In this document: piece by piece, positions 3,734-61,974 of the stretch
Numbering within the stretch: position 1 is the first letter of the stretch
Layout: every line of letters begins with the position of its first letter
NCBI GenBank assembly: GCA_944320495.1
Contig: CALUHR010000008.1
Span: forward strand, 32,001 to 96,000
Reading direction: 5' to 3'
DNA from: Candidatus Methanomethylophilaceae archaeon
Lineage (GTDB): Archaea > Thermoplasmatota > Thermoplasmata > Methanomassiliicoccales > Methanomethylophilaceae
DNA length: 64,000 nt
Notes under the pieces: model-generated
What the model was told of the DNA's origin: nothing
Database searches by the model: none
What the model saw: the letters and a program-made list of their open reading frames with translations, nothing else
Program-made: the position numbers and the translations under genes

Positions 3734-4285
3734 ATGGATGACGTGTACGTGGTCGAGGTCGCCGTGACGGGTCCCAGGGGTGCTCCGAAGGACCGCGTGG
3801 CGGAGGTGGCGGTATGCAGGGTCCTCTCGGACGGCTCGGACTTCGAGACCGTGTACAACGATGCGGTGGCCCTGGACCCCCTGGATCTGGGGAAGGGACC
3901 TCTGGATTACATGGAGGCGAACTACAGCATAACGCCCGAGGACCTCTATGCCGGGAGCCCGGAAGGACGCGTGGTGTCTGACCTCCAGGAAGCGATTTTC
4001 GGGAAGGAGTGCACATCATACAACGTGGGGAACGTGTTCGGCAAGCACCTCAGCTTCGAGCCCTGGGACGCCACCAGGAACCTCACGCTCCTCCCATCTC
4101 TCTCTGTGAGGCTCCCCGGCGATCTGCGCGGACCGCCAGAGCAGGAGCACATCCTCATCAGGCGTGCGTACGACTCCATCTGCCCCGGGGACCCGGCCGG
4201 TGTCGGTGAAGGGAACCACGCGATAGACCTTGCGCAGATGGCGGCTTCGGTCGCCTCCGTCTTGCGTAGGGAGGGCATCTTCCGA
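3734..4285 (+). CDS. Hypothetical protein resembling a degenerate DEDDh 3'-5' exonuclease fold; ends at CGA
   Basis: VVEVAVTG...VAEVAV resembles Exo I and HAIDLA resembles Exo III. In-frame CGA at 4283-4285 follows REGIF; the track extends it into AT-rich spacer to 4354. Confidence 0.6.
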
Positions 4286-4376
4286 CAATGTTTCAACACT
4301 CGATATTTTGTAGGTTGTCTATACAAATCAGGATCTTCCACTTCAAAACTATAATTTTTTCCAAGATACCTGGTGT

Positions 4377-4802
4377 TCAAAACGGACCTACGCCATGAAA
4401 CCTGAACACCATGTCGTCCAGGGATGCGAGTGCCAGGCATCCCAGGAAGAGCAGGACGTACATTATCCAGCAGGGTACCGCGAAAACTATCGTGAAGATG
4501 CCGAACGTTAGGAAGACGGCGGCCACGAAGAACAGTAGACCCAGGAGCAGGGCGATGTAGCCCCTCTTCTGTCTCGGGTTCCTGTAGATGAGGCCCAAGC
4601 CGAGGAGACCGACGAACGCCGGGATGACCGACAGGAGTATTGCGACCTTGCGGCTTCCGCTCCTCCTCTGCCTCTTCTGGTATCCTCCGGACCTGTCGCG
4701 GACCGGCTCCGGCTCGACGGGGATCTTCTTATAGCATTTGGGGCAGGTCACGCTGTTGGATGGTACCAGCTCGCCGCAGTACGGACAGCGCCTGTCGGCC
4801 AT
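4377..4802 (-). CDS. Zinc-ribbon membrane protein
   Basis: N-terminal CPYC...CPKC followed by hydrophobic TM segments; ATG at 4802 directly after the thioesterase stop. Confidence 0.75.
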   Translation of the reverse strand: MADRRCPYCGELVPSNSVTCPKCYKKIPVEPEPVRDRSGGYQKRQRRSGSRKVAILLSVIPAFVGLLGLGLIYRNPRQKRGYIALLLGLLFFVAAVFLTFGIFTIVFAVPCWIMYVLLFLGCLALASLDDMVFRFHGVGPF

Positions 4803-4803
4803 G

Positions 4804-5235: not shown

Positions 5236-5370
5236 GCCGCACCGTAGGGGGATCAGGGCTTAACGGTTGCCACCAGTCGTTCGGGGATGCTGGGATGATG
5301 AGGTCACATATCGGCCGTCCCTCACACAGGGATGGGAGAATGTATAATCGGAGGACGCTTGGGGGTGGCC

Positions 5371-7160: not shown

Positions 7161-8010
7161 GCCTCCAGAGCGGGATTCCCGCCTCGTCGGCCCATTCGGT
7201 GGTGTCCGCGTAGAGCCTGGTGGAGCGGAAGCACTCGTCAGAGAACGCCAGTCTGAGGGCGCCGCCGAGGGACCCCTCGTCCAGCCCGGACGCGTTGAAC
7301 CCTCCGAATGAGCGCTTCAGGCCGATAAGCAGTATGGAGATCGTGTCGTGACCGCGTGCGGCCTCCCACATGTCGTCGAGCTGCTCGGCCTCGTCGTTGA
7401 GGATCCTAAGGAGCTCCTTCCTGCCGATCCTGGCCGAGCGGGAGTTGTCCAGCACCTCGGACACCATCTGGCGGGCGTCGAGGGCCATGCTGGCAGGGTT
7501 GATGAAGCGGTTGAAAGTGAGATTCTTGAAGCTCAGGTTGAGCCCCCTCTCCTGCGATATGAACATCAACAGGCCGATCGGATAGCTGGACGAAACCAGC
7601 GCATCCCTTATCGGGCCGAACCTCTCCTCGAAGCGGTCCACCTTCTCCGGGTCGCCATACTCGCTTATGACGTCATCCAGGGCGTTGCTCCTGATCGCCA
7701 TCATCTCCATGTCGCGGCAGTCGGTGTGGAAGAGTGGGGGCCTGGCGTGGCGACCGCGGAGGCGCTCCAGGTCGGGGTCCATGATCCCGAGCGTCTTCCG
7801 GTCCCTCCTGCGACCGGACATCTCCTTCACAACGCCACGGACGTTGTCCTTGGAGTGCGCGATCACGATGCTGACCTCGCCGCGGTCGACGAATTTGCCG
7901 AAAAGCCTGCTGTCGGTTATGCCCTCGACGATCAGGAACGCACCGTCGAACACGGTGCGCTCCATGCTGAGCTCGTTGCAGATGTCCTCGGTCGTCAGGA
8001 ACTCGCGCAT
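7147..8010 (-). CDS. DUF4435-like TOPRIM-domain protein (AriB-like)
   Basis: LIVEGITD and IMDPD TOPRIM-type acidic motifs; directly downstream of an ABC-type ATPase. Confidence 0.75.
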   Translation of the reverse strand: MREFLTTEDICNELSMERTVFDGAFLIVEGITDSRLFGKFVDRGEVSIVIAHSKDNVRGVVKEMSGRRRDRKTLGIMDPDLERLRGRHARPPLFHTDCRDMEMMAIRSNALDDVISEYGDPEKVDRFEERFGPIRDALVSSSYPIGLLMFISQERGLNLSFKNLTFNRFINPASMALDARQMVSEVLDNSRSARIGRKELLRILNDEAEQLDDMWEAARGHDTISILLIGLKRSFGGFNASGLDEGSLGGALRLAFSDECFRSTRLYADTTEWADEAGIPLWRLTQP

Positions 8011-18151: not shown

Positions 18152-19441
18152 ATGGGGGATCTCATGGTGACGGGCACGGCATTCTTCGAAGCGGCCGCCG
18201 CCTACAACGATGCACCGGTGAAGAGCGGATTGTGCTCCATATGCAAGGGCGCCCACAGGCTGTGCGGCAAGGACCGCTGCCCCCTGATGATCAAGTTCTA
18301 CTCGCAGCAGAAGACCCGGCCGCTCATAGACGCCAAGGACCTGGCCGGCTCAAGCCCACCGTCCGTCTTCGTGGGACGCTACGGATACCCGAAGGTGGAC
18401 ATCGGACCCCTGGTCCCGCCGGAGTTCGGTGACACCTCCGTAATGGGGAGACCTGAGATGTGGGTCGGGAAGTCGATAGACGAGATCGTCGACATGCGCT
18501 TCCGCCTGGTGAGGGGGAAGTACCGCATCGACGCCACCGACTTCGCGAAGTACGGGCGCATGGTGGACGCGGTCCAGGAGGTGGCGCTGACCGAGCGCCC
18601 CATAGACATAGAGACCACCTTCTCCCAGAAGCCCCGCGGCAGGGTCGTCCTGGACGATGACATCGAGCCCTTCGGTCCTTCGGCCAGGATGGAGGCCATG
18701 TCCATAGGCAACGGGAGGTTCGAGAGGAACCTGGAGAGGTCGTTCTACGACACCGACATGCGCGCCGTGGACGCCGTGGTGTCGGCGTACAGGGGAGGGA
18801 CCCTGATCTCCGAGATCCAGAAGGCCTTCTCTGTTGGAACGATGGGGACCGGCAAGCGCAGGCGCTTCGTCCCCACCAGATGGAGCATCACCGCCGTCGA
18901 CGACATCATAGGCAAGGACCTGCTGAAGACCACCAGGTGGAACCCGACCATCGACGACTTCAGGCTCTACCTCTGGGAGGAGCTGGACAACAGGTGGGCC
19001 ATCCTCCTGATGCCCTGCACCTGGAGGTTCGAGCTCATAGAGGCGTGGTATCCCAACACCACCTGGAACCCCACCGGGAAGACCATAGACGTCATCCACG
19101 ACAGCGAGTTCTTCGACGGCAGGACGGAGTACGCCCACATCGGAGGATGCTACTACGCGTCAAGGATGGCGGTCAACGAGCTGCTCATTAAAGAGGGGAG
19201 GACCGCAGGTGCCGTCATCATGAGGGAGGCCCATCCCGGATACGTTATGCCCGTCGGGGTCTGGAACGTCAGGGAGAACGTCCGCGCCGCTCTGAAGACG
19301 GAGCCCCTCCATTTCGAGACCTACGACCAGGCGATGACCCGTGTGGAGCAGATGATGGACATCAAGCGCGACGGATGGATCGCCAACTCCGACGTGATGA
19401 GGGACTGGCTCGTCCAGAGGAGGATTGAGGACTATTACCGA
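18152..19441 (+). CDS. nreA: Archaeal DNA repair protein Nre; ends at CGA
   Basis: CSICKG...CGKDRCP, SPPSVFVGRYGYP, RFVPTRWSITAVDD, GGCYYA. C-terminal PIP box QRRIEDYY is followed directly by CGA (19439-19441), giving 429 aa; the track gives a 773-aa read-through. Confidence 0.93.
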
Positions 19442-20222
19442 CACGACCCTCGGCGACTTCTCCGGAGAGAGGCTGGAATGGGACGGTCCTTTCCGGATAG
19501 TGGAGTGCGGCAGGGCGCTGTCCCCATCCGGGCTGGACGAGATGGACTACGCCCTGAACCCCTACGGGGGATGCGAGCACGGCTGCATCTACTGCTACGC
19601 CCCGGGACACACCCATTCGGATCTCGCGGGATGGAGGGTCGTCCGCGTCAAGAGGAACGTGATCGACAGGCTGTCCAGGGAGCTGCCCTTCGCGGACGGT
19701 ATAATCGGCATAGGCACGGTCACCGATCCGTACCAGGCCGCAGAGGGCAGGTTCCGCCTGACCAGGGGATGCCTGGAGGTCCTGGCCTCGAGGGGCCGGA
19801 GGATCCACATCCACACCAAATCGGACCTCGTCCTCCGCGACATCGACATCCTGTCGGGGATGGACTGCGTCGTCGGGATCACGTTCACCGGCGTCGATCC
19901 GAGGGTCTCGAAGATGACCGAGCCAGGCGCCCCGCTGCCCGAGGCGAGGCTCCGGGCGATCACCGGCCTCTTGGACGGCGGGGTGCGGACGTACGCCCTG
20001 GTCGCCCCCACCATGTCGACCGCCGAGGGGCACGAGGCGGAGATCATCGATGCCCTCCGTTCCACGGGGGTCCGCCGCGTATACGTGGAACCCCTCAACC
20101 TCAGGCTTGTGGACACCACGCGTCTCGACAGGATGGGCATAACCCCGTCCCCCAAGGCTGTCGCGGAGATGGCCAGACTCTGCCGCGAGGCTGGCATCCT
20201 GGGCATGGGCGTGGTTCGTCGA
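19425..20222 (+). CDS. Radical SAM protein (SplB/Rv2578c-like); ends at CGA
   Basis: NPYGGCEHGCIYCYA (CxxxCxxC), TDPYQ, HTKSD. TTG start overlaps the nre end. CGA at 20220-20222, two codons before TGA. Confidence 0.88.
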
Positions 20223-21038: not shown

Positions 21039-21671
21039 TCGTTCGCTTGGCGGCATGATGAAGTGCGTCCAGAGGTGGGGCTCATAGACGGGCTTCTCGG
21101 TTCCCGCCATCCTTCCGGCGTTGATGCACTTCAGGAGCCACGCCATGTTCTGGGCGAGCGTGCGCATGGTCTGCAGCCCCTCCTCGTCCCTGCGGACGTC
21201 TTCGGGGGTGAAGCCATGGACCTGGTTCCAGTATTGTGATGGGACCAGCGGCATGTTGCAGATCGTGAAGTACTTGTTCAGGCGGTCGAAGGCCGCGGAA
21301 GCCCCGCCCCTGCGGCAGGACACGACAGATGCTCCGAGCTTGCCGGCCATCCTCGCCGCATTGGAATAGAAGAACCTGTCCGCGAATGCGCAGACCTGAC
21401 CAGACGGGCCAGCGTAGTACACAGGCGAGCCCAGAACGATTGCGTCGAACTCGTCCAGCCTCTCCGCCAGGACGTTGACGTCGTCCTTGATCGAGCACCT
21501 GCCCTTCTTGGCGCAGTATCCGCAGTCCCTGCATCCAGCGGTGTCGTTCTTGATGTGATAAATCTCCGACTCGACGCCCTCCTTGGTGAGTGTTTCCGCA
21601 ATCTCCTTCAGGGCGGTGTAGGTGCAGCCGTGCTCCTTGGGGCTGCCGTTGATAAGTAGAACCTTTGCCAT
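21039..21671 (-). CDS. NADPH-dependent FMN reductase/flavodoxin-family protein; ends at CGA
   Basis: LLINGSP, CRDCGYC, GSPVYY, SCRRGG, SQYWN. CGA at 21041-21039 gives 210 aa and is followed by a hairpin. Confidence 0.88.
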
Positions 21672-21767
21672 AGTATCGCTCCGATTGGGCCGAATGGCCA
21701 TACTGCGTCCCCAAATCGAGGACTGATAAGAACCCGCCATCCGAAGACAGCGAGGTCTGGTTTGTTA

Positions 21768-22313: not shown

Positions 22314-22316
22314 GTG

Positions 22317-23330: not shown

Positions 23331-23840
23331 TTGTCGAAGGAACTTATCGCATTCTACTCAAGGGCCGACGAGAACTACTTCGCCGGTTCCTACAGATACG
23401 TGGACGTCGGGAACACCGAGATTGTCGCCGGAATGCTCCAGGAGCTCACCGGGGCCGACATTTTCAAGATTGAGCAGGCGAAGCCCTACTCCAAGGACTA
23501 CAACACCTGCATCGAGGAGGCCAAGGAGCACCAGAGGAGGGACGCGCACCCCGAGCTGAAGTCCTGCCCGAAGAGCATCGACGGGTACGACACGATCTAC
23601 CTAGGCTACCCGAACTACTGGGGGACGATGCCCATGGCCGTCTTCACCTTCCTCGAGAGGTACGACTTCACAGGCAAGACCATCCGACCCTTCTGCACTA
23701 ACGAGGGCAGCGGTCTCGGCAGTAGCGTCTCCGACATCAGTAGCCTCTGCCCCGGGGCCAACATCGAGAAAGGCCTGGCCATCACAGGCGGACAGGCCAG
23801 GGGTTCCCGCCCCTCCCTCGAGCGCTGGCTCAAAGGATGA
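23331..23840 (+). CDS. Flavodoxin
   Basis: FYSRADENY..GNT, YLGYPNYWGTMP, PFCTNEGSG; TTG start. Confidence 0.9.
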   Translation: MSKELIAFYSRADENYFAGSYRYVDVGNTEIVAGMLQELTGADIFKIEQAKPYSKDYNTCIEEAKEHQRRDAHPELKSCPKSIDGYDTIYLGYPNYWGTMPMAVFTFLERYDFTGKTIRPFCTNEGSGLGSSVSDISSLCPGANIEKGLAITGGQARGSRPSLERWLKG

Positions 23841-27233: not shown

Positions 27234-27309
27234 CCCCTGGGACCCGAACACGGGCCCTCGACAATCCTTTATAACGGCGGAGCCGATGCGTCTGCGGGAT
27301 GGATGCACA

Positions 27310-32301: not shown

Positions 32302-32414
32302 GGGAACACCTACTAGTGACTGCATGTCAGCTATCTCCCGTATAATTACTATGTGGTCACGCTCACGAGAAGACGACATCGATATAACCGCACATAGCGT
32401 CCACCTCATCAGAC

Positions 32415-38815: not shown

Positions 38816-40525
38816 TCGGTCGATCCGTGGAGGGAACAGGATCTTCACGGTGTCCCCGTCGGTGGTTATGCCCTCCGATACCTCTACACGCAGCATCCTA
38901 CCGTCGGGATGCTGGACTATGTCACCATCCGATAAGTCCTCGTCTGCCGCCAGGATGTGGTAGAGCAGGTCGTTCATGAACGTCAGGAGCGTATCGGGTC
39001 TGTCGCGGCATCCCACCGTCTCTACCTCGAGCTTGCCGAACAAGTGTAGCCCGCAGGTGTAGGACCTGACCTCACCATCGCGGTGGGACAGCCCCACCCA
39101 GACCCAGTCCCCAATCGGAAGGGCGCCGTCCCTGATGGACTCGGCTTCACGGACGTAGTCGTCAGCGCTGATGACTGCACCGGGGATGTACACCCCGATG
39201 GTGCCGGGCTGCCTGCAAACGGCCGAGACGATCTTGGTGTGCAGGGTGGCGGCCGCGATGCAGTCGCTGCCGTGATTCACCAGGGCGACCATGATGTGGG
39301 CCCTGTGCTGCCCGACCCTGTCGCGGGCATCGGGCCAGCGGTAGTTGTTGAGGGCGTTCTCCTCCGCCTCCCCGTCGGGGACGGGTCCGGAGGTCTTGCT
39401 GATGATGACCAGGTCCCCGTCGCATTCGAACGTGAGGTTGGACCCGTCCGTGCTGAAACGGCAGCGTATGCCCCATTGGGACACGAGGTCGAACTGTATC
39501 CTGTCCGGATCCCACGCGTCCTCCTCCAGTAGGACCATGGCGATGAACGGGCCACCCCTGTCGCGTGGGACATCGAGGGACATCCTCTCGTCGAACGATG
39601 CTATGACGGGCTCCTGTCCCCCGTACCCGGCGAAGCTCAGGAACGACCTGAGTCCGCGGTCTACGCTGACGGCATACAGCGGCCTCCCCTCCACCCTCCT
39701 GCCGAGAGCGGCGCGGGCGGCGTCCTCCATGTCGGGGATGGCGTCGATGATGCGCCTGATGTCCTGCACCGGGATCTTGGACAGGTACGCCTCGTTCATC
39801 ATGAGGGTCACGAACACCGACCCCCCGGGGAGGTCCATCACGTAGGTGCAGTATGGATGGTCGGCGATCCAACCGGCGGGGCGGAGGGCTTCCTTGACCT
39901 CGCGGAGCCCTTCCGGGTCGACCATAATGCCCTTGACGGCCTCGACGGCGGTCCGATCCGGGGAATCCTCCCCGGGCTGGCGGGACTCCATCTCCTCGAT
40001 GGTCCTGCATGCCTCGATGTCACCCATCAGAGCGGTGAAGTCCGGATCCGCCGGAACGAGATCGAGGCCCCTCCTGGCGGCGGAGAGGGCCTTGGAGCGG
40101 TCCCCGTAGTGGCAGTAGAGCCTTCCGAGGGTCAGCCAGTTCCAGGGATAGGAGGGTTCCTCGTCGGTACCGCGGAGGAGATACTCCATGGCGAGACGCG
40201 GCCTCCCGCAGTACATGAGGGCGTTGGCGTACCTGTAGAACCACACGCCACAGCCGCGGGCCAGGTCCTCCACGTCGGAGAGCCACTGGAGGGAGGTCCT
40301 GAAGTGCTCATAGTCTCCGATGTTGTTGCAGGCGTAGGCGATCATGAGCGCCACATCAAGGTCATGATGGGCCTGCCTCTCGGTGAACCTGCCCTCCGAC
40401 ACGCCGACTGCTATGATGCGGCCGATGCAGTCGAGCATGCCTTCGAAATCTCCGGACGAATCGTCCTCGTAGGACTGTATCTCTCTGAAGTCCTCCGGAC
40501 GGAGGACTCCTCCGAGATCGTTCAT
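38816..40525 (-). CDS. TPR-module + DUF4261-like protein; ends at CGA
   Basis: WFYRYANALMYCGRP TPR-like module; C-terminal HRAHIMVAL, YTCGLHLFGKLEVE. CGA at 38818-38816 precedes the track's TAG. Confidence 0.65.
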
Positions 40526-40633: not shown

Positions 40634-41545
40634 TCGGCCCCGCCTCACGTCGATGTCCAGATCGTCCGAGCTCACATAGCCGGCCACGCCAATCTCCATC
40701 GCGCGGATGAGGTGCTTCTCGGCCTCCTCGGTCCTGCCCACCTTCATGAGGGCGCTGGCTAGGTCGTGGTGCAGGGTGACGAGCGCCTCCCTGTCGTAGG
40801 CCATGTGGTTCTCCATCATGCTCTCCATGATACCCACCGCCGCGGTGAGGTCCGCGACGCTGTCCTCGTGCCTTCCAAGGTCGGTCTCGCTGCCGGCCTT
40901 CATGACCAGGTCCATGATTAGCGCGTCCGGCTCCTCCAGGACCCCCCTGGACATTAGGTCCGAGCCGATCGCTATGGCTATCGAGTACTGCTCCACCGAG
41001 GCTTCCACGTTGCCGAGGCCGTCCAGGGCCTCCGCGGCGAGGGAGCGCAGCTCCATGCGCCTGTTGTCCGACCATGGGTCGAAACCGCCTAGGATGTCCA
41101 GCCCCTTGCGGATGAAGGGCTCCGAATCCTCCGGATGCTCGGAATCGATGAGGTTCTCGGAGACTGAGATGCACATCCTGACGATGCTGCGCAGGTCGTA
41201 GTGCCTGGAATCGGGGCCCAGGTCCCCGAGACGCTCGGCCGCGATGTCGTACTCCTCCACAGGGTCGCCGTCCTGGTCGAAGATCAGGGAGCCCATCGTG
41301 ACGTGTATCTTCACGAAGGTGCCCGCGTCGACGCGCACGCCATCGGACTCGAGATCGGCGGCGAGGTCGGCCGCGCTCTCCAGATCGTCCAGAGCGGACG
41401 TGCGGTACTCGAGCATGGCCAGGACGTTTCCGCGGTTGACGTAAGCCTCCAGGAGGTCCCCGCGGTCTCCGCCGTCCTCCAGGGAGTTGACCCTGTCGTT
41501 GAGGTCCTGCAGCGTGTCTTCCAGGTGGGAATCCGTCCTCTCCAT
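40634..41545 (-). CDS. TPR-like helical repeat protein; ends at CGA
   Basis: EAYVNRGNVL, HHDLASALMKVGRTEEAEKHLIRAM; CGA at 40636-40634. Confidence 0.65.
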
Positions 41546-42985: not shown

Positions 42986-44674
42986 ATGTTCATACCCACC
43001 ACCAGGGAGGAGATGGACCGCCTGGGCTGGGACCGGGCGGACATCCTGCTGGTCTCGGGTGACACCTACACCGACAACTCCTACAACGGGACCGCCCTGG
43101 TGGGCCACTGGCTGATGGACCACGGGTACAGGGTCGGCATCATAGCACAGCCGAGGGTCAACACGGGGGAGGACATCTCCCGCCTCGGCCGCCCCAGGTT
43201 GTTCTGGTCCGTCTCGGCCGGATGCGTAGACTCCATGGTGGCGAACTACACGCCGACCAGGAAGTTCCGCAAGGAGGACGACTTCACCCCGGGAGGCGTC
43301 AACGACCGCCGTCCGGACAGGGCCTGCATCGCCTACACCAACCTGATCAAGAGGCACTGCAAGGGGGAGCCGGTGTTCCTGGCGGGCGTCGAGGCCAGTC
43401 TCAGACGCATCGCGCACTACGACTTCTGGTCCGACTCCGTCCGCCGCTCCGTGCTCTTCGACGCGAAGGCCGACGGGATCGTCTACGGGATGGGGGAGCT
43501 GACCAACCTCCAGATCGCCGAGAGGCTGGATTCCGGCGATGACTGGAGGGACCTCCGCGGCGTCTGCCACGCATCCTCATCGAAACCGGACGGATGCGTG
43601 GAGATGCCCTCGTACGAGGAGGTCTCCAGGAGGGACGATCGGAGGGCGTTCATGAGGGCGTTCTCCATCCTGAGGCACAACTCCGACCCCGTCACCGCGA
43701 GACAGCTCTGCCAGGCCCACGGGAACCGCTGGCTGGTGCAGAACCGCCCCCAGAGGTGCATGACCACGGAGGAGCTCGACGCGGCCTACGAGTCCTCCTT
43801 CGAGAACAGGGTCCACCCCTTCTACGCCGGAGGCGGACGCGTCGCCGCCCTGGACACCGTCAGGAACTCCGTCACCACGCATAGGGGATGCTACGGGGAC
43901 TGCTCCTTCTGCGCCATAGCGGCGCACCAGGGGACGACGGTCGTCTCGAGATCGCACGACTCCATCATGAGGGAGGTCCGTCGCATGGCCGCCTCCGAGG
44001 GTTTCGACGGCGTCATACGCGATGTGGGAGGGGCCACGGCCAACATGTACGGGATCGAATGCACCAAGAAGCTCTCGAACGGGAGGTGCGAGGATAGGAG
44101 ATGCCTCGGAGGGAGACCGTGTCCGAGGCTGCCGATCGACCACTCGGAGCAGATCCGCCTGCTGGATGACGTATCGTCGGTGGACGGTGTGCGCAGAGTG
44201 TTCATCGCCTCCGGCATAAGGCACGACATGGTGCTCGCGGACAGGCGCAGGGGCGGGGACTACCTGGACAGGGTCGTCTCCGAGCACGTGTCCGGACAGA
44301 TGAAGGTCGCCCCGGAGCACGTGTGCGACGATGTTCTCAGGCTGATGGGCAAGCCCGGCAGGGATGCCCTGCTGGGATTCAAGGGCATGTTCGACGAGTG
44401 CTGCAGGGAGCGCGGGAAGGAGGAGTTCCTCACCTACTACCTGATGGCCGCGCATCCCGGATGCACCCGGGACCACATGCGCGAACTCGCATCCTTCTGT
44501 ACCAGGGAGCTCGGCACCCATCCCGAGCAGGTGCAGGTCTTCACCCCGACCCCTTCCACGTATTCGACGGCAATGTGGTGGTGCGGCACCGACGAGAGGG
44601 GCCGTCCGGTGACCGTCGAACGCTCCATCCAGGGCAGGCAGAGGCAGAAGGAGATGGTCTGCGGGAGGCGCCGA
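42986..44674 (+). CDS. ygiQ: YgiQ-family (UPF0313) radical SAM protein; ends at CGA
   Basis: GDTYTD, GCVDSMVANYT, GVEASLRRIAHYD, RGCYGDCSFC, QVFTPTP. CGA at 44672-44674 overlaps the next ATG. Confidence 0.92.
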
Positions 44675-45367: not shown

Positions 45368-46243
45368 ATGGAGCAGAGAGGCTTCGTGTTCCACGGAACC
45401 GACGGAGAGGCCGTGTACAGCATAGACCAGGTCAGGGAGCTCGCCTCCCGCGACGATCCGGACGGGGTGTACGCCCTCGCGATGGCATACCTCTTCGGAT
45501 GGGACGTCGAGGCCGATGAGGACAGGGGATACGATCTTCTCGAGAAGGCAGTGGGGCTCGGACAGACCGACGCCATGGCCCTGATGGTCCGCCTGTACAT
45601 GCAGAACGAGTACGACGGCATCGACAACGAGCGCGCCGCCGAACTTTCGATCACAGCGGCCAAGGACGGCATCCCCGAGGCGCAGCTCTATGCCGGCCTC
45701 GCCTACATGGACGGGGTCTCCGTACCCCAGGACTATGCGGAGGCGTCCCGCTACCTGTCCCTCGCGGCCAACCAGGGCGACCAGGAGGCCAGGACCGCGC
45801 TGGCGTACCTCTACGAGAACGGCCTGGGCGTGGGGAAGGACGAGGCCAAGGCATTCTCCATGTACAGGACGGCCGCCCGCGGAGGATGCGTGAACGCCAT
45901 GTTCCACGCCGGCATCTGCCTCGAGTTCGGCATCGGCACCAAGGCGGACCCCGACAAGGCCAAGGGATGGTATCTCGAGGGCTCCAAGGGAGGGGATGCC
46001 TTCGCCATGGAGAGGCTCGGCCACCTGACCCTCGATGAGGATCCCGGGGAGGCCTTCGAATGGTTCCTCAAGGCCGCCCTCGAGGGTGTGACCACCGCCA
46101 TGGGGACCGTCGGGTTCTGCTATCTGAACGGGGTCGGGACGGAGGCCGACAGGACGGAGGCCGTGAAATGGCTCCGCATGGCGGCCGACAACGGCATCGA
46201 GGAGGCCTCGGAGGCGCTCTCCGAGCTGGGGGGTCGCCACCGA
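45368..46243 (+). CDS. Sel1-repeat protein; ends at CGA
   Basis: Repeated AQLYAGLAY.DG..V.QD..EA units; CGA at 46241-46243. Confidence 0.85.
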
Positions 46244-46973: not shown

Positions 46974-47927
46974 TCGCATCCGGGCGGCCAGGAACTCGGC
47001 CGCCTCGGGGCATCCTATCTCGGATGACAGCCTGATCAGCCCCATGCCCTTGCGCTCGTCGGCTTCGATGCCCTCCCCGTTGAGGTACATCAGCCCGAGC
47101 ATGAATATGGCCAGTGGATCCCACGATTCCGCCGCACCCCTGAAGAGGCTTCTGGCGGAGCCGAGGTCCCTCTCCACCCCTAAGCCTGAATAGTACATCA
47201 TCCCCAGCGTGAGCATGGACTCGCGATCGCCGCGTTCCGCCGAGCATGACAGCATCCGGGCGGCCAGGACCTCGTCCTTCGCGACGCCGTCGCCGTACAG
47301 GTAGCGGAGGCCGATCTCCCTCAGCGAGTTGGGCTCCCCGTGCGATGCGGCGATGCCGTACCACTCCACCGCCTTTGCCGGATCCTTCCCCGTCCCCTCG
47401 CCGGTCTCGAACATGCGCGCGACGTTGAACATCGCATCGACGTTGCCATGGTCGGCGGATTTCGAGAAGAGGGCGAACGCCTCAGACCTGTCCAGACGTG
47501 TGCCCCAGCCGTTGTAGTACAGGATCCCTAGGTTGCACTGCGCGCCCGGATGGCCCTGGTCGGCGGCAAGTAGATACCACTTGGCGGCCTCCATCTTGTT
47601 GACCGGTATGCCGAGACCCTTGTCGCAGATGTAGCCGAGTCCGTACTGCGCCTCGGAGTACCCCTGGTCCGCTGCTTTGCGGTACCAGTGGATGGCCTCC
47701 GTCGCATCGGCCGGCATCCCGATCCCGTTGAGCAGGAAGTAGCCGTAGGTGTACTGCGCCTCGGCATATCCGGAACGGGCGGCATCGGAGATGAGGGAGA
47801 CCGCCCTCTTCGGGTCCCTCTCGACGCCGTCGCCTTCGTAACAGCGTCTGCCCAGAATGTACTGCGCCTCGGGATCGCCGCGTTCGGAACGGGCGGTCAG
47901 CTCCAGGATGGAATGGCCGTCGGACAT
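46974..47927 (-). CDS. Sel1-repeat protein; ends at CGA
   Basis: About eight Sel1 units (AQYILG, AQYTYG, AQYGLG, AQCNLG...). CGA at 46976-46974 abuts the convergent gene's TGA. Confidence 0.88.
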
Positions 47928-49337: not shown

Positions 49338-51410
49338 TCGTCCCTCCGCGGCCTCGATGAGGCCGCGGATCAACTCCCCTTCCCTTGCGGACCAGAAGCC
49401 GACGTCACATACCACGACGAGTCTGCGTCTGGCCCTTGAGACCGCCGTGTTGATCACCCTTCTGCCCATCGGCGTCTCCGAGCTCGTGAACCTCAGGGGG
49501 ACGTCCCTGTTCACGGTCCCGCTGTCCGCCACGCTGAGCACCACCGTGTCCCATTCCCTCCCCTGGGACCCGTGGACGGTCATCACGCAGTCTGAATACC
49601 TGCGCCCCACCTTGGACCTCAGGAGCCTGCACTGCGCCGTGTAAGGCGAAAGGACGCACACATCCGAGGGGTCTGGCGACGAAGCCTTCAGCAGCCTGGC
49701 TATGGCATCCGCCTCCGCCCTGTTCTCGCGGGTGTCGCGCTCCCCGCAGACGACGTCGATGCACTCTATCGACATGTCCGTCTCCGAGGAACCGGTCATG
49801 CCGTTGCGGTAGACGTAGCGGTCCAGGACCCTGGCGAGGGATTCCCCGAACCTCCTCGAATCTGTCAGGTCCCTGCGCACTGTGACCGAGAAGGACGGCC
49901 CGGAGCCGGAGATGTACTCGGCACGCAGGTCGATCAGGCCTCTTGTGAGGACGGTCTCGCAATGGAGGGCGGACATGTTCCAGATGAACGCATCGGAAAG
50001 CCATCCGCCCGACTGAGCCCTGTCCATGAGCAGGGCCTCGTCGAGCTGGGTCACCGGCGGAAGCTGCATGTGGTCCCCGAACATGGCCACCGGCACGCCG
50101 TTGGTGAAGAGGGCGAGCGCCTGCACCAGGCCACAGTATCCGGCCTCGTCGAGGAATATCCTGTCCACGTCGAGCTCCATCCTCCCGTCCTCGGGGGAGC
50201 CCTTCGGACGGAATCTGGAGATGAACTGGTGGGGCGTCGCCGCGATTATCGGAGCACTGGCTATCCTGTTCCCGGTCGACCTGGACCTCAGCACGGACAT
50301 CTCATCGTAGAGCCTGGAGATCTCCGCCGATATCTCCTCCGCGCTCCACTCGCCGTACTCGGAGATCTCCGCCGCCGGACGCTCGCGGTCGAAGAGGGCG
50401 GAATGGAGCTATCTCGCGGCCTCCGACAGCGGTACGCCCTCCGACATTATCGCGGCGGTCGAAGGGCGCATGGAAGCCACCGTCATTATGTCCCCGATGA
50501 TGCGCTCCCTCTCAGGATCACCGTCGGCATACCCCTCCGCATCGTCCAGGATCCCGGCGGACGTCAGGTGCTCGAGCTGGGCCCTTACGGAATCGCAGGC
50601 CCTCTCGTAGAGGACCTCCTCGAGATTCCCGATGGACCTGGCACATCCGTCTATCCTCATCTGGGCCTGGTTGTCCTCGCACATGTCCGGATGCTCCGCG
50701 AGGAACCCCTTCGTCGGGACGCCCAGCCTGACTATCCCCTTCGGGACCCCGTCCTCGCCGAACGCCCCCAGGATCCCCCTCAGCACCTGCTCGACCGAGT
50801 TGTTGGTGGGTGCGAACACCGCGACCCTCTCACCGGCCTCGAGACAGCCGCGGATGCAGGATGCCAGAACGAACTGGGTCTTGCCCGTGCCCGGGGCCCC
50901 CCAGACATACGACATCGACGACGAGGCGACCGCCAGGGCCGCCGATTCCTGCTGTCCGGTCGGGACGCCGGGATATTGCGGCTCGACCGTGTTCTGAGGC
51001 TCGCCGGGGGCTCTGACGTAGGCCCCGTACCTGCGGTAGAAGTCCCCCGCGGCCAGTACCAGGAACTTCATGTCCGCGAGGACCGAGATCCTGGCACCCT
51101 CCACGGACATGACGCGGAGGACCTCGGCATCAGGCCTGACCACGATGGTCCTCGAGATCTCGTCGTACCTCGTGAACCCGGCATCCTGCTCGCCCAGGAC
51201 CCTCTCGCCTATCCTGAGCAGGAGGCCCGAGGTGTCGCTGAGGCGGGCCGCCAGATGCAGTATCGCGAAGCCCTGCCTCACATCGGCGGAGGTCACCAGG
51301 GTCTCGGACATCCCCATCGGTGGATCCGTCACCCACTGCATGTCCTCCATGTAGCGGTAGACGGCATCGGCCGATCCGGAGAACACCGCTGATATCTCTT
51401 CCCCATCCAT
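49338..51410 (-). CDS. Upf1/DNA2-like SF1B helicase with an in-frame TAG (likely Pyl); ends at CGA
   Basis: GAPGTGKT lies before TAG 50411-50409; DEAG, GDHMQLPPV, TVHGSQGREWD and NTAVSRAR lie after it in the same frame. 690 aa with readthrough. Confidence 0.85.
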
Positions 51411-52051: not shown

Positions 52052-52933
52052 ATGTTCGCGGACGCCTGTGGCAAGGTCTCGGAGTTCTCCAGACCTGTGG
52101 TCATCTCGACTAGGCATCAGGACGGCACCATCAAGACCGAATGCGGCACGTTCATCGTCCTCAACCGGGACGGCTGGATAATCACCGCCGGCCACATGTA
52201 CGACTCCTATGTGAAGTACCAGGGGGACCGCAAGAAGGCCGAGGAGATCGAGGAGCTCAACGCCGCCCGCAGCTCCAGGCCCGGTGCCCCGTCGCAGCCG
52301 GTGAAGCTCGATCCCGGCATGATAACGAACCACTCCTTCTGGTGGGGCTGGGACGGCGTCCGCATCACCAACGTCTACGTCAACAGGCAGCTGGACATGG
52401 CCGTGGGAAGGCTGGAGCCCTTCGACCCCGAATGGGTCCGTGAGTATCCGGTCCTCAGGGACCCGGACCATCTCCGCCCGGGCACCAGCGTGTGCAGGTC
52501 CGGATACCCGTTCGTCAACATCACCGCGTCCTGGGACGACGCGACCTCCTCGTTCAGGATACCCAAGATCCCGATCAGGGACCTGATATTCCCCAACGAG
52601 GGCATACACACGCGGACCGTCGACCGCGGCAGGACCAGGGACGGCGACTTCCGCATGCTCTACGTGGAGACGTCGTCGCCCGGGCTCAAAGGCCAGTCGG
52701 GGGGCCCCATCTTCGACAGGGAGGGGAGGATCTACGCGATGCAGGTGCAGACCATGCACATGCCCCTCGGCTTCCATCCCACCGTCGAGTACGACGGCAA
52801 GACCGTCGTGGAGAACCAGTTCATGAACGTCGGCCTCGGGGTCCATGTGGCCACCATCAGGGACGTCCTCGACAGCCGCGGCGTGAGATACGACGCCGAG
52901 GAGGACGCCGGGGGATACAGGATCGTGGGCCGA
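52052..52933 (+). CDS. Trypsin-like serine protease; ends CGA(-TGA)
   Basis: Catalytic triad motifs ITAGH, DMAVG, GQSGGP. Confidence 0.82.
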
Positions 52934-53463: not shown

Positions 53464-53766
53464 ATGGACGACTCCGATATCGAGCGTCTCTCGTTGATCG
53501 GAAAGGCGCTCTCAGATCCCAGCAGGATCCGCATACTCCTCAACTTCAGGGGAAGGACCCTCTCGATCTCCACGATGACGGAAGAGCTGGAGACATACCA
53601 GTCCAATCTCTCGTACCACATGTCCATCCTGGTGAAGGCGGGTCTAGTCACCCGTGTCGACACAGGCAAGTGGCACTATTACGCCGTTGACCCCGAGACC
53701 CTCGAGCTGGCTCGCAGGTTCATCACCCAGTGCTCCAAGCGCCCCCGCTCCCGCAGGCAGGAGCGA
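53464..53766 (+). CDS. ArsR/SmtB-family regulator; ends at CGA
   Basis: KALSDPSRIRIL, SNLSYHMSILVKAGLV, KWHYY. CGA at 53764-53766 gives 100 aa. Confidence 0.85.
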
Positions 53767-53806
53767 GGGCCAACTGTTTTTCTATTGGCTCGGATTCCGC
53801 CCGGGC

Positions 53807-55873
53807 ATGATGGGAATGTTCTGCCCCAGATGTCATGCCCTCGTGTCCCCGACGGATGCGAGATGCCGCTCCTGCGGCGCACCCCTGGACAGCCTGGTGG
53901 AGAGCAACCAGTCGGTCCTGGACGGCGTCGCCGAGAGGCCGAGGAGGGCGGAACCCGAGGTCACCGAGGTGAAGGGCGCCCCGTACATGCCATACGAGCC
54001 GCGCGGATGCCAGATGGACATCATCACGGACATGGTTAAGGCCCTTGACTCCGGGAGGCACTTCGTCATGGAGTCGGGCACCGGCACCGGCAAGACCATC
54101 GTGTCGCTGGCCGCATGCCTCGACCACGCCTCCCGCACGGGAAAGACCATCGTCTACCTCACCAGGACCATCTCTCAGAGCGACCAGGTGATGAGGGAGC
54201 TCCGCGCCATCTCCAGGATCAGGCCCGTATCGGGCATCACGATCACCGGCAGGGGGAAGTCCTGCCCGCTCTTCAGGGGCCTGAAGGACTTCGACTCCAT
54301 TCCGTCGAACGTCCTCTCGATGATGTGCAACGACGCCCGCGAGAAGAGCCGCCACGGGAAGGCGGGGGGATGCAGGTACTTCGACCGCGTGGAGATGTCC
54401 CTGCCGCAGATCGAGTCATACGTCAGGACGAGGTTCCCCACCTCCGACGAGCTGGACGAGTACTGCATCAGGATGCAGGTCTGCCCCTACGAGGCCAAGA
54501 AGGCGCTCATGAAGGGTTCTGAGGTGGTGGCCGCACCTTACGTCCACATCCTCGACCCGGACATCAGGGACAGCCTCATGACCAACCTAGACAGGCCCGG
54601 GGACCCGAGATCCCTGCTCATCATCGTGGACGAGGCCCACAACCTCGTCGACGCGGCGAGGGAGAGCGAGACGTTCAGGATCGACCGCGCCCTCGTAGAC
54701 GCCGCCGTGGACGAATGCTCCACGTTCTCCCACCAGCCGGAGGTCGGGGACAGGATACTCCTCTCCGAGTTCCTCGGGACCCTGAAGAGGGCCATTCGCG
54801 CCGCCGCGATCGAGCTCATCCCCATGGGAAAGGACACCGTCGCCATCCGGGACGACCGCATCGAGAGGACCATCATGGACAAGTTCGGACTGTCCCCGTC
54901 CGAGCTCCAGGTGGCCATCGAGGACGCCATAGACCTCGGCGAGGCCAGGACCGACAAGCTCCTCGACAGCGGGGAGAACCGCGTCTCCGACATACAGGAG
55001 GTCGCGGTGGCCCTGAAGTCATGGTGCGGAGCGGACTCCAAGCGCTTCGTCCGCACCATCCACGCCGACCGCGAGGGGGAGTTCCTCCGCGCGTACTGCA
55101 TCGATCCCAAAGAGATCTCGATGTTCCTCAACTCCACATCGGGGACCGTCCACATGTCTGGGACGCTGCATCCCATGGACCAGTACGCGAGGGTCATCGG
55201 ACTCTCGAGCAACTGCACGTTCCGCAGGTACCCATCCCCTTTCCCGCCGGAGAACCGCCTGGTGGTCTACACGCCCCATCTCACCACCAGATGGCAGGAC
55301 CTCAAGGCCAATCCGGACATGAGGGCGAGGCTGGAGAGGACCATAGCGGACCTGTGCAACTCCGTCGACAAGAACACGCTCGTGTTCTTCACATCCTATG
55401 CCAGCATGCAGTCCATGCGCGGATACCTGGAGGAGCACATCCACAAACGCCTCTACTGGGAGCAGTCTAGGAACAACCGCGCCAACGCCTCCGCGCTGTC
55501 GTCCTTCAGGGCGAGACGCGACGGGGTGCTCTTCTGCGTCATGGGCGGCAAGTTCGCCGAGGGCATAGACTTCCCCGGCGAGGAGCTGTGCTTCGCCGTG
55601 ATCGTCGGCATCCCCTATCCCCCGCCGTCACCCGACCTGGACGCCATGTCGGACATGTTCGAGTCGCGCTACGGACAGGGCAAGGGTTTCGCCTACACGT
55701 CGTCCATCCCCGCCCAGAGGAAGCTCAAGCAGGCCATCGGGCGCCTCATCAGGACGGAGACCGACCGCGGGATGGCCGTCATCCTCGACAGCCGCGCGTC
55801 CAGGTTCGCCAAGGACCTCGATGCGAGACCGTCGGACGACCCGGTGGGCGAGGCCGCCAGGTTCTTCCGCCGA
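53807..55873 (+). CDS. xpd: XPD/Rad3-like SF2 helicase with N-terminal zinc ribbon; ends at CGA
   Basis: CPRC..CRSC, ESGTGTGKT, Fe-S cysteines, DEAHN, SGT, EGIDF, QAIGRLIR. CGA at 55871-55873, four codons before TAA. Confidence 0.88.
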
Positions 55874-57957: not shown

Positions 57958-58041
57958 GCGGAGGTAGCCGAGCGGCCCAAGGCGCTGGTCTTGAAAACCA
58001 GTGGAGGATTCTCCTCGGGGGTTCAAATCCCTCCCTCCGCG
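57958..58041 (+). tRNA. tRNA-Ser (anticodon TGA)
   Basis: Acceptor stem GCGGAGG/CCTCCGC, anticodon arm CTGGT-CT TGA AA-ACCAG, long variable arm, T-loop TTCAAAT, discriminator G, no encoded CCA, followed by TTTTT. Confidence 0.95.
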
Positions 58042-58272
58042 CTTTTTGATCAATCTGAGCGTATCGGGTGACCTGTAGGTACACTCCGCATTGTCAAAGA
58101 AAATGTCAGGCCCAGAGATGTCTCCCGATCGATGAATCGCGGATCGCCTCACTCATCCCTCGGGTGAGTGGTCCGCATACCGATCGCCGCAGAAGCGATT
58201 GAGTGCACAGAGCCTGTTCCCGGGTAGTCTACGCTGAATCTGTTATCGTCGGACGGATACGTCGGATTGCGG

Positions 58273-61200
58273 TCGAACCTCCGGCAGCCAGTCCCCGCCG
58301 AGCCTCACGTCCTCGACCCTGCCGTTGAGATTCCTGTAGGTGAGCGTCACCCCCATGCCCCCGTCCACGGTCACCGTGGTCAGGACACCGGCGCGGTTGG
58401 ACATCGGGTCCCTCTCGCGCATGAGGACGGCCAGGGAGGACCATCTTCCCGACATCGCCCTGTCGCGGATCCCCGCGAGCCGCGACGGGTCCATCTTCGA
58501 TACCGCGGCGATGTTCGTCTCGAACACCATCGAGACCCTCCCTCCGCGGGTGTCGAGGTCGAAGCAACAGTACGGGCCGTCCTCCTCCCAGGTCCCGTCC
58601 ACAGGCTCGAACATCCCGCGGAAACGCTCCGCACCCTCTGGGTCCGTCAGGATGCAGTCGATGGTCCTGAGCTTGCCGTCGCTCGCCGGGTCGTCACCGG
58701 CCTGGAGGACCGCGTCCGCTCCGGGGTCGATCCAATGGAACTCGAAGCGGTCGAGATCGTATCCCGCCTCGATCTCCGAGGCGAGGGTCTCGAACTCGTA
58801 GTCGCCGGGCACCAGCTCCAGCCCCCTGCGGACCGCGTCCATCGCCGCAACCCTGTCGCCGAAGTGGGCGCGCAGCTTGGCGACCTGCAGCCACACCCAT
58901 GGATAGCACGGCTCCTCGACGGCCCCCCTCTCGGCGTATACCAGCGCCTCCTCGAGGCGACCGCAGTACATCAGGGCGCAGGAGTAGCGGTAGAACCATG
59001 TCCCGCAACCCGATGCCGCGGATTCCGACGAGGGCATCCACCGTGCAGCGCGCCAGTAGTGGACGTAGTCCCCGATGTTCAGGCAGGCGTAGGAGAACCA
59101 AAGCGCCACGTCCAGGTCCCTCTCGACTTGTCTCGAGCTGAACCTCCCCGACCTTATCCCGTCGTTGAGGGTTTCTACCAGGTCACCGAGCATCGCGTGA
59201 TACCGCCCGTCGATCTCCCCCTCATAGGAGGAGAGGCGCTCGACGTCCTCCTGCGACAGGATGGGCTCCGCGGGATCCTCGGGAACGGTGCGGTCCATGA
59301 CCCTGACCGAAGGGCAGTCCCTGCGGAAGCTGTGGAAGCTGGCCCATGCCAGGTCAGTCCCCTCGAAGAAGCGGGATGCGGCGGAGAGCGTGCGCTCCAG
59401 GTCCCAGGCCATGAGGTCGATGTATCCGTACCGGGTCCCGGTTGCTCCTCCGATGATGCGTACGGAGTCCTCGCCCGCCTCGGCGACGATGGCTTCGGAT
59501 GCCGCGTCGCGGAAGCGGAGGATGTCCCCGGAGCGGTCTTCCCCGGCGAAGCCGTCGAGCGGGAATATCAGGAACCCCGCCACGGCGCCGTCGGCGTGGA
59601 GCATGTCCGCCGAGGCGTCCTCGCAGGAGATGTAGCTCCCCACGAGCTTGGCGCAGGAGGTGACGCCGACGACCACGTCGGCCCTCCAGTCCGCCTCTGG
59701 ATCCTCCACGGGGTCGGACCTGTAGACCCTGCTGACGTTCAGGTACGAGTCGGCGTCGATCTCCATGTTGAAGCCCATGTCGATGAGACGGTCCCTGAGC
59801 TCCGACAGGCGGACGGTGTCCCCCTCCGGGGCCTTGCCGACCACGTCGATGCCGTCCAGGACCGACATGGCGGGGACCTCGCCGATGACCCTCTCCATCA
59901 GGTTGGCTACCATCCATCCCACATCGTCGGGTTCGGTGGAATATAGGCTGTCCAGCTTCCCGCAGTGCATCGTGAGCCTGACGAAGTCGCCGCTCCTCTC
60001 GATGGATACGTCCACGTCCTCAGGCGCTATCCTCACGCCGTCATGCTCGATCTCCATGCCGATGCCGGGAGGCCGGCCGGCGGTCACTCCCCATCTCCTC
60101 AGCACGTCCTCGGGCGCGCGCCTGATGAACTCGGAGATCTCGAACAGCCTCACCCTGTCCGCCTCCGGGGTCAGGATGAGATGGAACCTCTCGCCGTCAT
60201 GACCGATCTCGAAGGCGACATCCCCGAACGTGATATCCAGTATCCCATCGACCAGACCGATCAGTTCGCCCTCGACGACGGCACGGTCGGGATGGGCCAG
60301 GAGCCTCTCGATCTCGTCCATCTCCTCGGCGAACCTCCTCCATGTGAGCTCAGCGCGCTCGCGGAAGCATCTGTGGAAGCGGGGGTGCGCCAAACCGTTC
60401 AGACAGGATCCCAGCATCTCCCCCGCATCCGGATCGGTCTCGGCTGCCTTGGCGAAGTACGGAATCGCCTCCGGCTCCCTGTCCATCATGTAGTACGAGT
60501 ATCCCATGCGGTAGTTCCAGAGCGGATCGTCCGACTTGGCTTCCCGGATGGATTCGAGGATGGCTATGGCCTTGCGGAAGGGCTCAGGATCGTCCGGTCC
60601 GCCGATGTTGTTGTACGCCCTGGCGAGGATCCCGTACAGGTCGGGGGTCCTCTCGGACTCGGGCAGAGCCTCGATCGCCTCTATGATCCTCTTGTGGAGG
60701 CCCTCGACGTGCCAGCTCTCCAGCTGCTCCATCAGCGGGGATTGGTCTGCACCGGGGGAGGCGTCGCCGCCCGATGCCGCATCCCATGCGGGATCGTCCA
60801 TCACCTCCTCGACGGAGATGTCCATGCGGTAGAACGAGAGCATGTCGGAGAACGTCTCCCTGATGGAATCGACATCGGACCCCGTCATCCGGTAGCCCAG
60901 CTCGTCCTGGAGCTTCAGCACGCTTCCGGCCCTGGACCTCAGCTGGTCGATCATCTCCTGGCGGGACCAACCGCCCGTCGGTATCCAGAAGCTGAGGCCC
61001 CTGAAGATGTGCTGCGTACGCCTGAGGAAGTCCTCCGGGACCGATCCCCCGTCGGCCATCGCCCTGCAGAAGACGTATTCTTTCGGGAAAGGGCGCTCGT
61101 CTTGGAACGGCCAGAGGTCGGCCTCGGGCACCTCGGCGGACGCCTCTTTCTGGATGCCGTCCTCGGTGACGGGCTCATCGAGACGGACGATCCTCCTTAT

Positions 61201-61974
61201 CAGGAACCTTCCGGGGATCTCACCGTCCGGGCCGGTCTTTATCGGATTGAAATGAGGCGAGCATGGCAGGTATCCGAGCACGGGGCCGTATCCCGTGAGG
61301 ATGTTCCCGCCGAGGTCCCCGCCCCTGAACAGAGGGGTCTCTGAGCGTACCAGTTCGACCTCGAACGGGTCGTATGCGATGGTCAGACCGAACTGGTTCG
61401 CCTCTTCGAACACGCAGGGGCCGTCGAATCCCTCCAGATGCCTGAGTCCGGAGCGGAAATCGAAGCGGTCGCCCCAGAGGAACAGAGTCTTGGAGCCTCC
61501 GCCGCAGAGATACTCCCATTCATCCGATGTCGGGAGATCGAATCCCTCCTCCAGGGAGCCGAGAGCATCCTCGGTCCTCCCCTCGAACGCATCGGGCATC
61601 ATCTGCACGAGCATGGGCGGGACGACTGCTGTCCGAACGGAACCGATCATCCTCCTCAGCACCTCGTCGGGATCCCCCTCGTACCCGTGCTCCCTCAGGA
61701 CGCGTTCGATCTGGAAACGCGTCTCCCCGTCCAGATCCTTGAAGGAACCTCCCCATTCGAGGGTCACGGTGTCCCCCGGCACGAATACGAAGTAACGGCC
61801 GTCCCTCTCGAACACTGCGGAATAGGTGTAGATGCCCCATCTCTCGAACCTGCGGAAGCCGACGAGCGTCATGCCGTGGGATTCGCCTGCCGCACGGAGG
61901 ATCCTCTGCCTCGAATCGATTGTGAGAAGGTCGTATTCGTTCCTGTAGAGCCGGCGGAGGTCCTCTTCGTCCAT
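58273..61974 (-). CDS. Large multidomain protein (FGE/sulfatase-modifier-like N-terminus, two TPR modules); ends at CGA
   Basis: LPTSDEWEY motif, TPR LWNYRMGYSYY, second module WFYRYSCALMYCGRL. First CGA at 58275-58273 gives 1233 aa. Confidence 0.7.

Follow-up and report, generated by a model that had tools for sequence, protein, structure and literature searches.

The window analysed here, a stretch of 64,000 nucleotides from a Methanomethylophilaceae archaeon of a Methanoprimaticola-like genus (G000:C8:32001-96000), raises the question of whether CGA, an arginine codon in the standard code, can end genes. The genome to which it belongs, G000, comprises 1.77 Mb in 14 contigs and has a GC content of 61.6%. 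An initial annotation of the window had proposed that CGA acts there as a terminator, and hence that the code is non-standard. We found that gene structure, the stops of orthologues, the ends of Pfam domains and the independent assemblies of relatives all agree with this proposal. From these sequence comparisons, we consider it likely that CGA acts by default as a terminator in this archaeon, next to TGA and TAA, ending about 25% of its genes while retaining a residual reading as arginine; this state may involve release dependent on the release factor aRF1, a weakened cognate tRNA and a feedback on aRF1 itself.

To call genes, we combined codon likelihood with greedy removal of overlaps, and set CGA as a fourth stop. 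Each of the 21 positions proposed as CGA gene ends does carry CGA (TCG on the forward strand for genes on the minus strand; Table 1). Nineteen of them are stops of called genes and one, at 31213, ends a gene that continues through an in-frame TAG, but the remaining site, at 53764, is doubtful; T follows the codon in 11 of the 21 cases, the same count as reported before. With CGA as a stop, the window tiles into neat, non-overlapping genes: 57 were called, ending in TGA (29), CGA (23), TAA (3) or TAG (2), and CGATG stop/start junctions occur at 28081/28083, 44672/44674 and 52931/52933. In all tested window genes with a Pfam match, the domain ends just before the CGA. When the codon is read as arginine, the open reading frames (ORFs) overrun into neighbouring genes or antisense sequence, as had been claimed, with extensions that have a median of 23 codons and reach hundreds. 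The radical-SAM gene illustrates the consequence. The NCBI and ENA protein collections hold it as a 616-residue read-through form (42986-44833, plus strand), the last 54 residues of which overlap the next gene, and the 562-residue form ending at CGA was not found in the public protein collection. Public annotations of the clade are systematically affected by such false C-terminal extensions and by fused proteins.

Across the whole genome, the four-stop code yielded 1698 genes and 90.3% coding sequence, with 1197 genes ending in TGA, 425 in CGA, 58 in TAA and 18 in TAG; the standard code yielded 1330 genes and 81% coding sequence. Among 1136 ORFs with positive codon bias, the numbers of CGA codons in successive tenths of ORF length were 891, 584, 275, 146, 45, 34, 43, 90, 136 and 377. 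This strong U-shape is unique to CGA among the rare codons; within the interior of the ORFs, AGA, CGT and CGG are evenly distributed. The coding signal also ceases at CGA: of the 149 segments preceding an in-frame CGA, 100 had frame 0 as their best coding frame, compared with only 27 of the 149 that follow one. With AGA as a control, the corresponding figures were 450 and 446 of 539, and the frame was kept after all seven control codons (AGA, CGT, CGG, TCA, AAA, ATT and ACT). Genome-wide, T follows the CGA stop in 232 of 425 cases (55%), 94 of the 425 stops lie in CGATG overlaps, and the roughly 425 sites share no motif, just as no fixed motif had been evident in the window.

The initial annotation had also suggested comparing the genome-wide positions of in-frame CGA with the stops of orthologues. 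This comparison placed CGA at gene ends and showed that orthologues stop there. In 142 pairs with a CGA end, 46% of the orthologues stop at the very same codon (offset 0), and allowing a difference of up to 2 or up to 5 codons raises the share to 79% or 94%; the corresponding figures for TGA ends are 63%, 87% and 96%. This agreement was seen whichever base followed the CGA (+4). The relatives' stops in these pairs were TGA (101), TAA (17) and CGA (23); at the end of the radical-SAM gene, for example, two relatives read '...CAT GGA TGA' and '...CAT GGA CGA'. Most CGA stops would probably have arisen by a T-to-C change of a former TGA. As a terminator, CGA is probably weaker or slower than TGA, since genes with strong codon bias avoid it (a CGA end occurs in 5.3% of the most biased tenth of genes, compared with 34% of the less biased half) and a backup stop within 10 codons downstream is slightly more common after CGA (31%) than after TGA (23%).

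A gene filter based on G at the first codon position failed to separate real from antisense ORFs, and in its place we aligned G000 proteins to the DNA of relatives, sampling 80-300 kb from each of 13. We recorded the frequency of CGA per 1000 aligned codons and how often CGA was the first stop at the expected C-terminus. Within the genus, these values were 0.1 and 31/75 for G010, 0.2 and 6/65 for G004, 0.0 and 5/126 for G039, and 0.0 and 0/54 for G008. In a Methanomethylophilus-type genome, G070, which is a closed chromosome of 1,666,795 bp, they were 0.07 and 6/170 (about 3.5%), and five of the six CGA ends coincide with the end of the G000 orthologue. Two further genera gave 0.2, with 0/71 (G076) and 1/68 (G079); in another two, CGA occurred at about 1 per 1000 codons, with 1/59, 1/74 and 0/49 for G073, G088 and G094, and in other families of the order at 2-7.4, about half of the CGA codons being aligned to arginine in both of these last groups. 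The share of gene ends that are CGA thus ranges from 0 to 41% within the genus, across independent assemblies. Use is highest in the two most GC-rich species sampled, G010 (41%; 61.7% GC in the sampled DNA) and G000 (25%; 61.6% over the whole genome), but GC alone does not order the species, as G004 (61.0% GC) has only 9% CGA ends. Judged by these genomes, the trait is natural and common to relatives, and not an assembly artefact. The picture is one in which CGA would first have become vanishingly rare in the family and then come back at gene ends.

The claim that genes contain no internal CGA held as near-absence but not as absence. A genome scan returned 11 CGAs flanked on either side by coding signal. 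Genome-wide, about six candidate interior exceptions emerged: one each in aRF1, ribosomal protein L18e, the junction of GmhA-like and GmhB-like sequences and a flavodoxin gene, and two more. In 20 CGA-ended genes, the frame-0 coding signal persists downstream. For those with Pfam matches on either side of the CGA, fusion in the same frame was considered and rejected, as the matches belong to separate neighbouring proteins (NifH-like and nitrogenase-component-1-like; FAA hydrolase and PurS; SNO and Sel1; ion channel and Asn synthase); the in-frame candidates left among the 20 are aRF1, the GmhA-GmhB junction and the flavodoxin gene. The flavodoxin CGA, which the initial annotation did not list, is species-specific, its orthologues having AGG, CAT, TTC or CTG; it is a premature stop of recent origin or else a site of low-level read-through. 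The junction CGA is conserved in G000 and three other members of the genus, and no start codon was found behind it; it may be a candidate for a programmed read-through fusion. At codon 30 of L18e, CGA is present in 30 of 30 members of the family, and beyond it in the majority of the families of the class that were sampled, some of them lineages in which CGA is normal. The idea of a second regulatory site in L18e was set aside, because the codon is kept class-wide even where CGA is an ordinary codon, and we read this CGA as a probable old constraint at the nucleotide level, apart from the code change. The base following the CGA is G or C in aRF1, L18e, the junction and the flavodoxin gene; CGA stops prefer T.

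The genome contains a single aRF1 gene, in which the one in-frame CGA, codon 78, specifies the arginine of '...SIAA-R-LK' that follows the NIKS motif and aligns with R81 of human eRF1. Its relatives include aRF1 from 'Candidatus Methanoprimaticola sp. MG2' (91% identity) and from 'Methanogranum', 'Methanoplasma' and 'Methanomethylophilus' (72-78%), as well as from metagenome-assembled genomes of Methanomethylophilaceae and Methanomassiliicoccales from human, sheep and deer guts. Exactly one CGA, codon 78 within GCT/TCT CGA CTN, was present in all 30 genus members first examined, where adjacent synonymous sites vary. Of another 38 species, whose aRF1 is at least 81% identical, 36 share this single codon. 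Sister genera also have a single CGA, but at codon 25 (TAT/TAC CGA GGN) or codon 11, and in other families the gene contains 1-5 CGAs (most 2-5) at varied positions. None of 110 distinct aRF1 genes lacked CGA, even though the codon occurs at 0.2 or fewer per 1000 codons in CGA-poor genomes. Because the CGA is kept while its position moves, the simplest explanation of the pattern would be that the codon as such is under selection, and the pattern suggests an autoregulation similar to that of RF2. Around the aRF1 CGA, we found no RNA helix supported by covariation.

The initial annotation had further considered that aRF1 might be altered. In eRF1, NIKS reads the first base of the stop codon. We found that the NIKS, YxCxxxF and GGQ motifs of aRF1 are all intact, and that the differences consist of flanking substitutions, which can serve as leads only. 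M65 (human R68) distinguishes the whole family from the aRF1 of other families. A119 (human T122) and F129 (human H132), which flank YxCxxxF and are a further feature of the CGA-poor genera, occur in 75 of 83 genes with a single CGA, against 4 of 27 with several.

It had also been suggested that tRNA-Arg(UCG) was lost and the codon left without a tRNA. This was not the case: the tRNA is encoded at G000:C13:413317-413390, alongside those with anticodons GCG, CCG, UCU and CCU, and is present in every relative examined. BLAST with the 74-nt tRNA missed divergent copies, and a covariance model found the tRNA in 5 of 5 re-examined genomes. Its anticodon arm, however, is defective. All nine copies from the genus are abnormal, with either a mismatch at 31-39 (A31.A39 in G000 and G010; U31.C39 in G021; C31.A39 in G004, G118, G002 and G039) or C33 in place of U33, a base that is near-universal in tRNA. 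The C33 copies come from G008 and G023, both closed genomes, and the gene ends sampled in G008 included no CGA stop. In 11 distinct tRNA-Arg(UCG) sequences from other genera, 31-39 is paired and C33 does not occur; one of them (g9) is mismatched at 27-43. As the mismatch persists while the bases that form it change, and the rest of the tRNA is intact, we infer that the defect probably represents a maintained weakening and not decay. The survival of the tRNA would be explained by the L18e CGA, which forces some decoding as arginine.

These observations can be combined into a mechanism. At CGA, the peptide would be freed by the single aRF1 or through an aRF1-dependent pathway of termination or rescue, and aRF1 would outcompete the cognate tRNA because the latter is kept in a weak form, with a mismatched 31-39 pair or C33. 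Arginine reading would persist at a few conserved sites, namely aRF1 codon 78, L18e codon 30 and the GmhA-GmhB junction; it is the conserved in-frame CGAs of L18e and the junction that lead us to speak of a default terminator with residual arginine reading. The synthesis of aRF1 would then be set by the balance between termination and arginine decoding at its own CGA: with ample termination, the protein would be truncated after 77 residues, and with scarce termination, tRNA-Arg(UCG) would allow its completion.

Several findings weigh against this interpretation. At least two essential genes, those for aRF1 and L18e, need CGA as arginine, such that termination at CGA is not absolute; both have the codon at conserved arginine positions, and the loss of its arginine meaning is therefore incomplete. 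The cognate tRNA is retained, so that CGA is not a codon that no tRNA decodes. Some members of the genus show no CGA stops in the sampled sequence (0/54 in G008) yet keep the aRF1 CGA, which indicates that this CGA does not go one-to-one with the use of CGA as a stop. The unchanged NIKS motif offers no visible basis for accepting C at the first position, and A119, F129 and M65 are family-wide, and confounded with phylogeny as well as with the presumed change of TAG to pyrrolysine in the same lineages. Finally, release at CGA is itself what we infer from gene sequences.

A rival explanation is that CGA is unassigned, a 'hungry' codon at which ribosomes stall for want of a strong or abundant tRNA; aPelota and ABCE1 would then split the ribosome, followed by hydrolysis of the peptidyl-tRNA, or aRF1 would act slowly and unspecifically. 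At the level of the genome, such stalling would produce the same pattern as reading by a release factor. It would also accommodate the retention of tRNA-Arg(UCG) with anticodon-arm defects in nine of nine genus members, the unchanged NIKS of aRF1 and the avoidance of CGA stops by highly biased genes, and G008, from whose genes CGA has gone and where it has no use as a stop, resembles an unassigned stage. We nevertheless regard stalling as unlikely. Ribosome splitting would be a costly way to finish 25-41% of proteins, and provides no reason for a single in-frame aRF1 CGA to be kept family-wide at positions that shift between genera. In addition, the CGATG overlaps in which 94 of the 425 CGA stops lie are typical of coupled termination and reinitiation.

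Termination at CGA fares better still against the view that CGA always means arginine, according to which genes would extend as far as the following TGA or TAA, the resulting tails and fusions would be tolerated, and a rare codon would simply be drifting into gene ends. A tRNA-Arg(UCG) does exist, aRF1, L18e and the GmhA-GmhB junction need arginine at CGA, and public annotation reads the genes in this way. But the coding signal ceases at CGA, the orthologues end at that position with TGA or TAA, the extensions run into neighbours or antisense strands, and proteins with no relation to each other would be fused, for example FAA hydrolase with PurS. This view would also leave unexplained why CGA occurs at 0-0.2 per 1000 interior codons and at a quarter of gene ends, and we consider it highly improbable. 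More improbable still is a standard code in which CGA is edited to UGA in the mRNA, a mechanism raised in the initial annotation, or in which the C stems from an error of sequencing or consensus: CGA is one transition from TGA, but the same CGA ends recur in many independent assemblies, closed genomes among them, site-by-site editing at some 425 positions without a motif is implausible and would abolish the CGAs conserved in aRF1 and L18e, and, as regards editing in any frame, identity to outgroup proteins at NCG-A codons (0.533, n=2023) is not below that at other NCG codons (0.502, n=6097).

Table 1. Positions of CGA gene ends, in-frame CGA codons and related genes. Coordinates are those of the window unless a contig is named.
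Feature	Position	Strand	Remarks
CGA stop, gene 3734-4285 (183 aa)	4283..4285	+	Called gene
CGA stop, AAA_21/ABC-type ATPase gene 8003-9043	8003..8005	-	Called gene; domain to aa 331, CGA codon 347
CGA stop, Nre gene 18152-19441	19439..19441	+	Called gene; Nre_C (110/110 profile positions) to aa 428, CGA codon 430
CGA stop, gene 19425-20222	20220..20222	+	Called gene
CGA stop, gene 21039-21740	21039..21041	-	Called gene
CGA stop, resolvase/recombinase gene 27286-28083	28081..28083	+	Called gene; Pfam match; CGATG overlap with next ATG
CGA stop, gene 28083-28940	28938..28940	+	Called gene
CGA stop, gene 30516-31205	31203..31205	+	Called gene
CGA stop, aldo/keto-reductase gene with two [4Fe-4S], 31213-32409	31213..31215	-	Contains in-frame TAG 31450-31452
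CGA stop, gene 34067-35236	35234..35236	+	Called gene
CGA stop, gene 37894-38667	37894..37896	-	Called gene; same-frame gene 36643-37833 next
CGA stop, TPR/DUF4261 gene 38816-40525	38816..38818	-	Called gene; DUF4261 to aa 562, CGA codon 570
CGA stop, gene 40634-41545	40634..40636	-	Called gene
CGA stop, radical-SAM gene 42986-44674	44672..44674	+	Called gene; CGATG; relatives have TGA or CGA at homologous end
CGA stop, gene 45368-46243	46241..46243	+	Called gene; relatives end in TGA or CGA
CGA stop, Sel1-repeat gene 46974-47927	46974..46976	-	Called gene; Pfam match
CGA stop, helicase gene 49338-51410	49338..49340	-	Called gene; Pfam match; reads through in-frame TAG 50409-50411
CGA stop, trypsin-like peptidase gene 52052-52933	52931..52933	+	Called gene; Pfam match; CGATG overlap
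CGA stop, 100-aa ORF 53464-53766	53764..53766	+	Doubtful gene; not called; overlaps helicase gene
CGA stop, XPD/Rad3-type helicase gene 53654-55873	55871..55873	+	Called gene; Helicase_C_2 to aa 716, CGA codon 740
CGA stop, 1233-aa gene 58273-61974	58273..58275	-	Called gene
In-frame CGA, flavodoxin gene 23331-23837	23685..23687	+	Codon 119, within Flavodoxin_4 (aa 26-167)
In-frame CGA	G000:C8:6831	+	Coding signal on both sides; no nearby downstream start
In-frame CGA	G000:C13:143454	-	Coding signal on both sides; no nearby downstream start
In-frame CGA, ribosomal protein L18e gene	G000:C13:191557-191913	-	Codon 30 (TGG CGA GAC)
In-frame CGA, GmhA-like (SIS)/GmhB-like (HAD) junction	G000:C13:194143	-	
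aRF1 gene	G000:C2:85936-87165	-	Single gene; one in-frame CGA, codon 78
tRNA-Ser(TGA)	57958-58042	+	Sole tRNA gene in the window

Two genes of the window also contain an in-frame TAG. In both, good coding sequence flanks the codon on either side. The TAG at 31450-31452 (minus strand) lies within an aldo/keto reductase with two 4Fe-4S motifs, and only if the TAG at 50409-50411 (minus strand) is read are the Walker-A half and the AAA_12 half of a helicase joined. In the few called genes that end in TAG (18 of 1698), the next in-frame stop lies far downstream. The two window codons would fit a reading of TAG as pyrrolysine, as in Genetic Code 34, which was described for all TAG codons in Methanomethylophilus and other pyrrolysine (Pyl) archaea in a report that makes no mention of CGA (Kivenson et al., bioRxiv 10.1101/2024.09.30.615893). 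G000 belongs to the same family, with TAG in frame within the two window genes and almost absent from gene ends. The TAG change is from stop to sense; that of CGA would be the reverse, from sense to stop, and superimposed on the former.

In a fuller version of our interpretation, aRF1 would read CGA as a true fourth stop in much of the Methanomethylophilaceae, cultured Methanomethylophilus among them; the tRNA would be deliberately weakened, the aRF1 CGA self-regulating and the whole an ambiguous intermediate in a lineage that would also have made TAG a sense codon. We put this forward tentatively, as a possibility for which our judgement falls slightly on the negative side. If true, a change of code from sense to stop would be seen for the first time beyond organelles, in a free-living archaeon and affecting about 425 genes. 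The kept tRNA, the few sites where arginine is obligatory and the use of CGA at 0-41% of gene ends would make the codon-capture and ambiguous-intermediate models directly comparable, and the data suggest a release-factor feedback loop in archaea. The affected annotations concern common methanogens of the human and ruminant gut, and homology-based code predictors are blind to a new stop (Melnykov, bioRxiv 10.64898/2026.04.02.715157). The claim can be tested now, because proteomes of relatives in culture have been published (Kivenson et al., bioRxiv 10.1101/2024.09.30.615893).

Among archaea, the closest parallel comes from two hydrothermal-vent assemblies of about 50% GC in which CGG means tryptophan and CGA is missing from HMM-matched domains; tRNA-UCG was not found there, and the possibility of a stop was raised with no analysis of gene ends (Melnykov, bioRxiv 10.64898/2026.04.02.715157). 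Our archaeon likewise lacks CGA in conserved domains. It differs in that it belongs to another lineage, CGG still aligns to arginine, tRNA-UCG is present and the gene ends were tested against orthologues. The tRNA-Trp of Blastocrithidia and Condylostoma, whose 4-bp anticodon stem tunes the reading of UGA (PMC13092985), offers a parallel for the tRNA: in both cases the change lies at the 31-39 end of the stem, in a tRNA that competes with a release factor for a codon with a dual meaning. In Blastocrithidia and Condylostoma, shortening of the stem promotes the reading of a stop codon, whereas the change in tRNA-Arg(UCG) is presumed to weaken that of a former sense codon.

For the aRF1 gene, the relevant comparison is with prfB, the gene for bacterial RF2, in which an in-frame UGA and a +1 frameshift, aided by a Shine-Dalgarno-like stimulator, provide autoregulation; we know of no release-factor feedback loop in archaea. 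Like prfB, aRF1 carries a conserved terminator codon early in the release factor's own reading frame. Unlike in prfB, frame 0 continues across the CGA with no +1 frameshift, and escape would occur by decoding as arginine.

For the code itself, the precedents are organellar: NCBI tables 2, 22 and 23 assign stop to AGA and AGG in vertebrate mitochondria, to UCA in Scenedesmus and to UUA in Thraustochytrium. To our knowledge, established cellular code changes are all from stop to sense or from one amino acid to another, and sense-to-stop changes occur only in organelles. Apart from the preprint on vent archaea, a literature search for sense-to-stop changes returned one paper only, which concerns organelles (PMC12574857), and in the literature covered by full-text searches, termination at CGA was not described for Methanomassiliicoccales, Methanomethylophilus or Methanoprimaticola. 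As in the organellar tables, a sense codon of the standard code stands at gene ends and has been purged from gene interiors, and as in table 2 it is an arginine codon. Unlike the organellar cases, which concern tiny genomes without a cognate tRNA, G000 is a cellular genome of 1.77 Mb with about 425 such stops, in which the tRNA is kept and some reading as arginine would persist.

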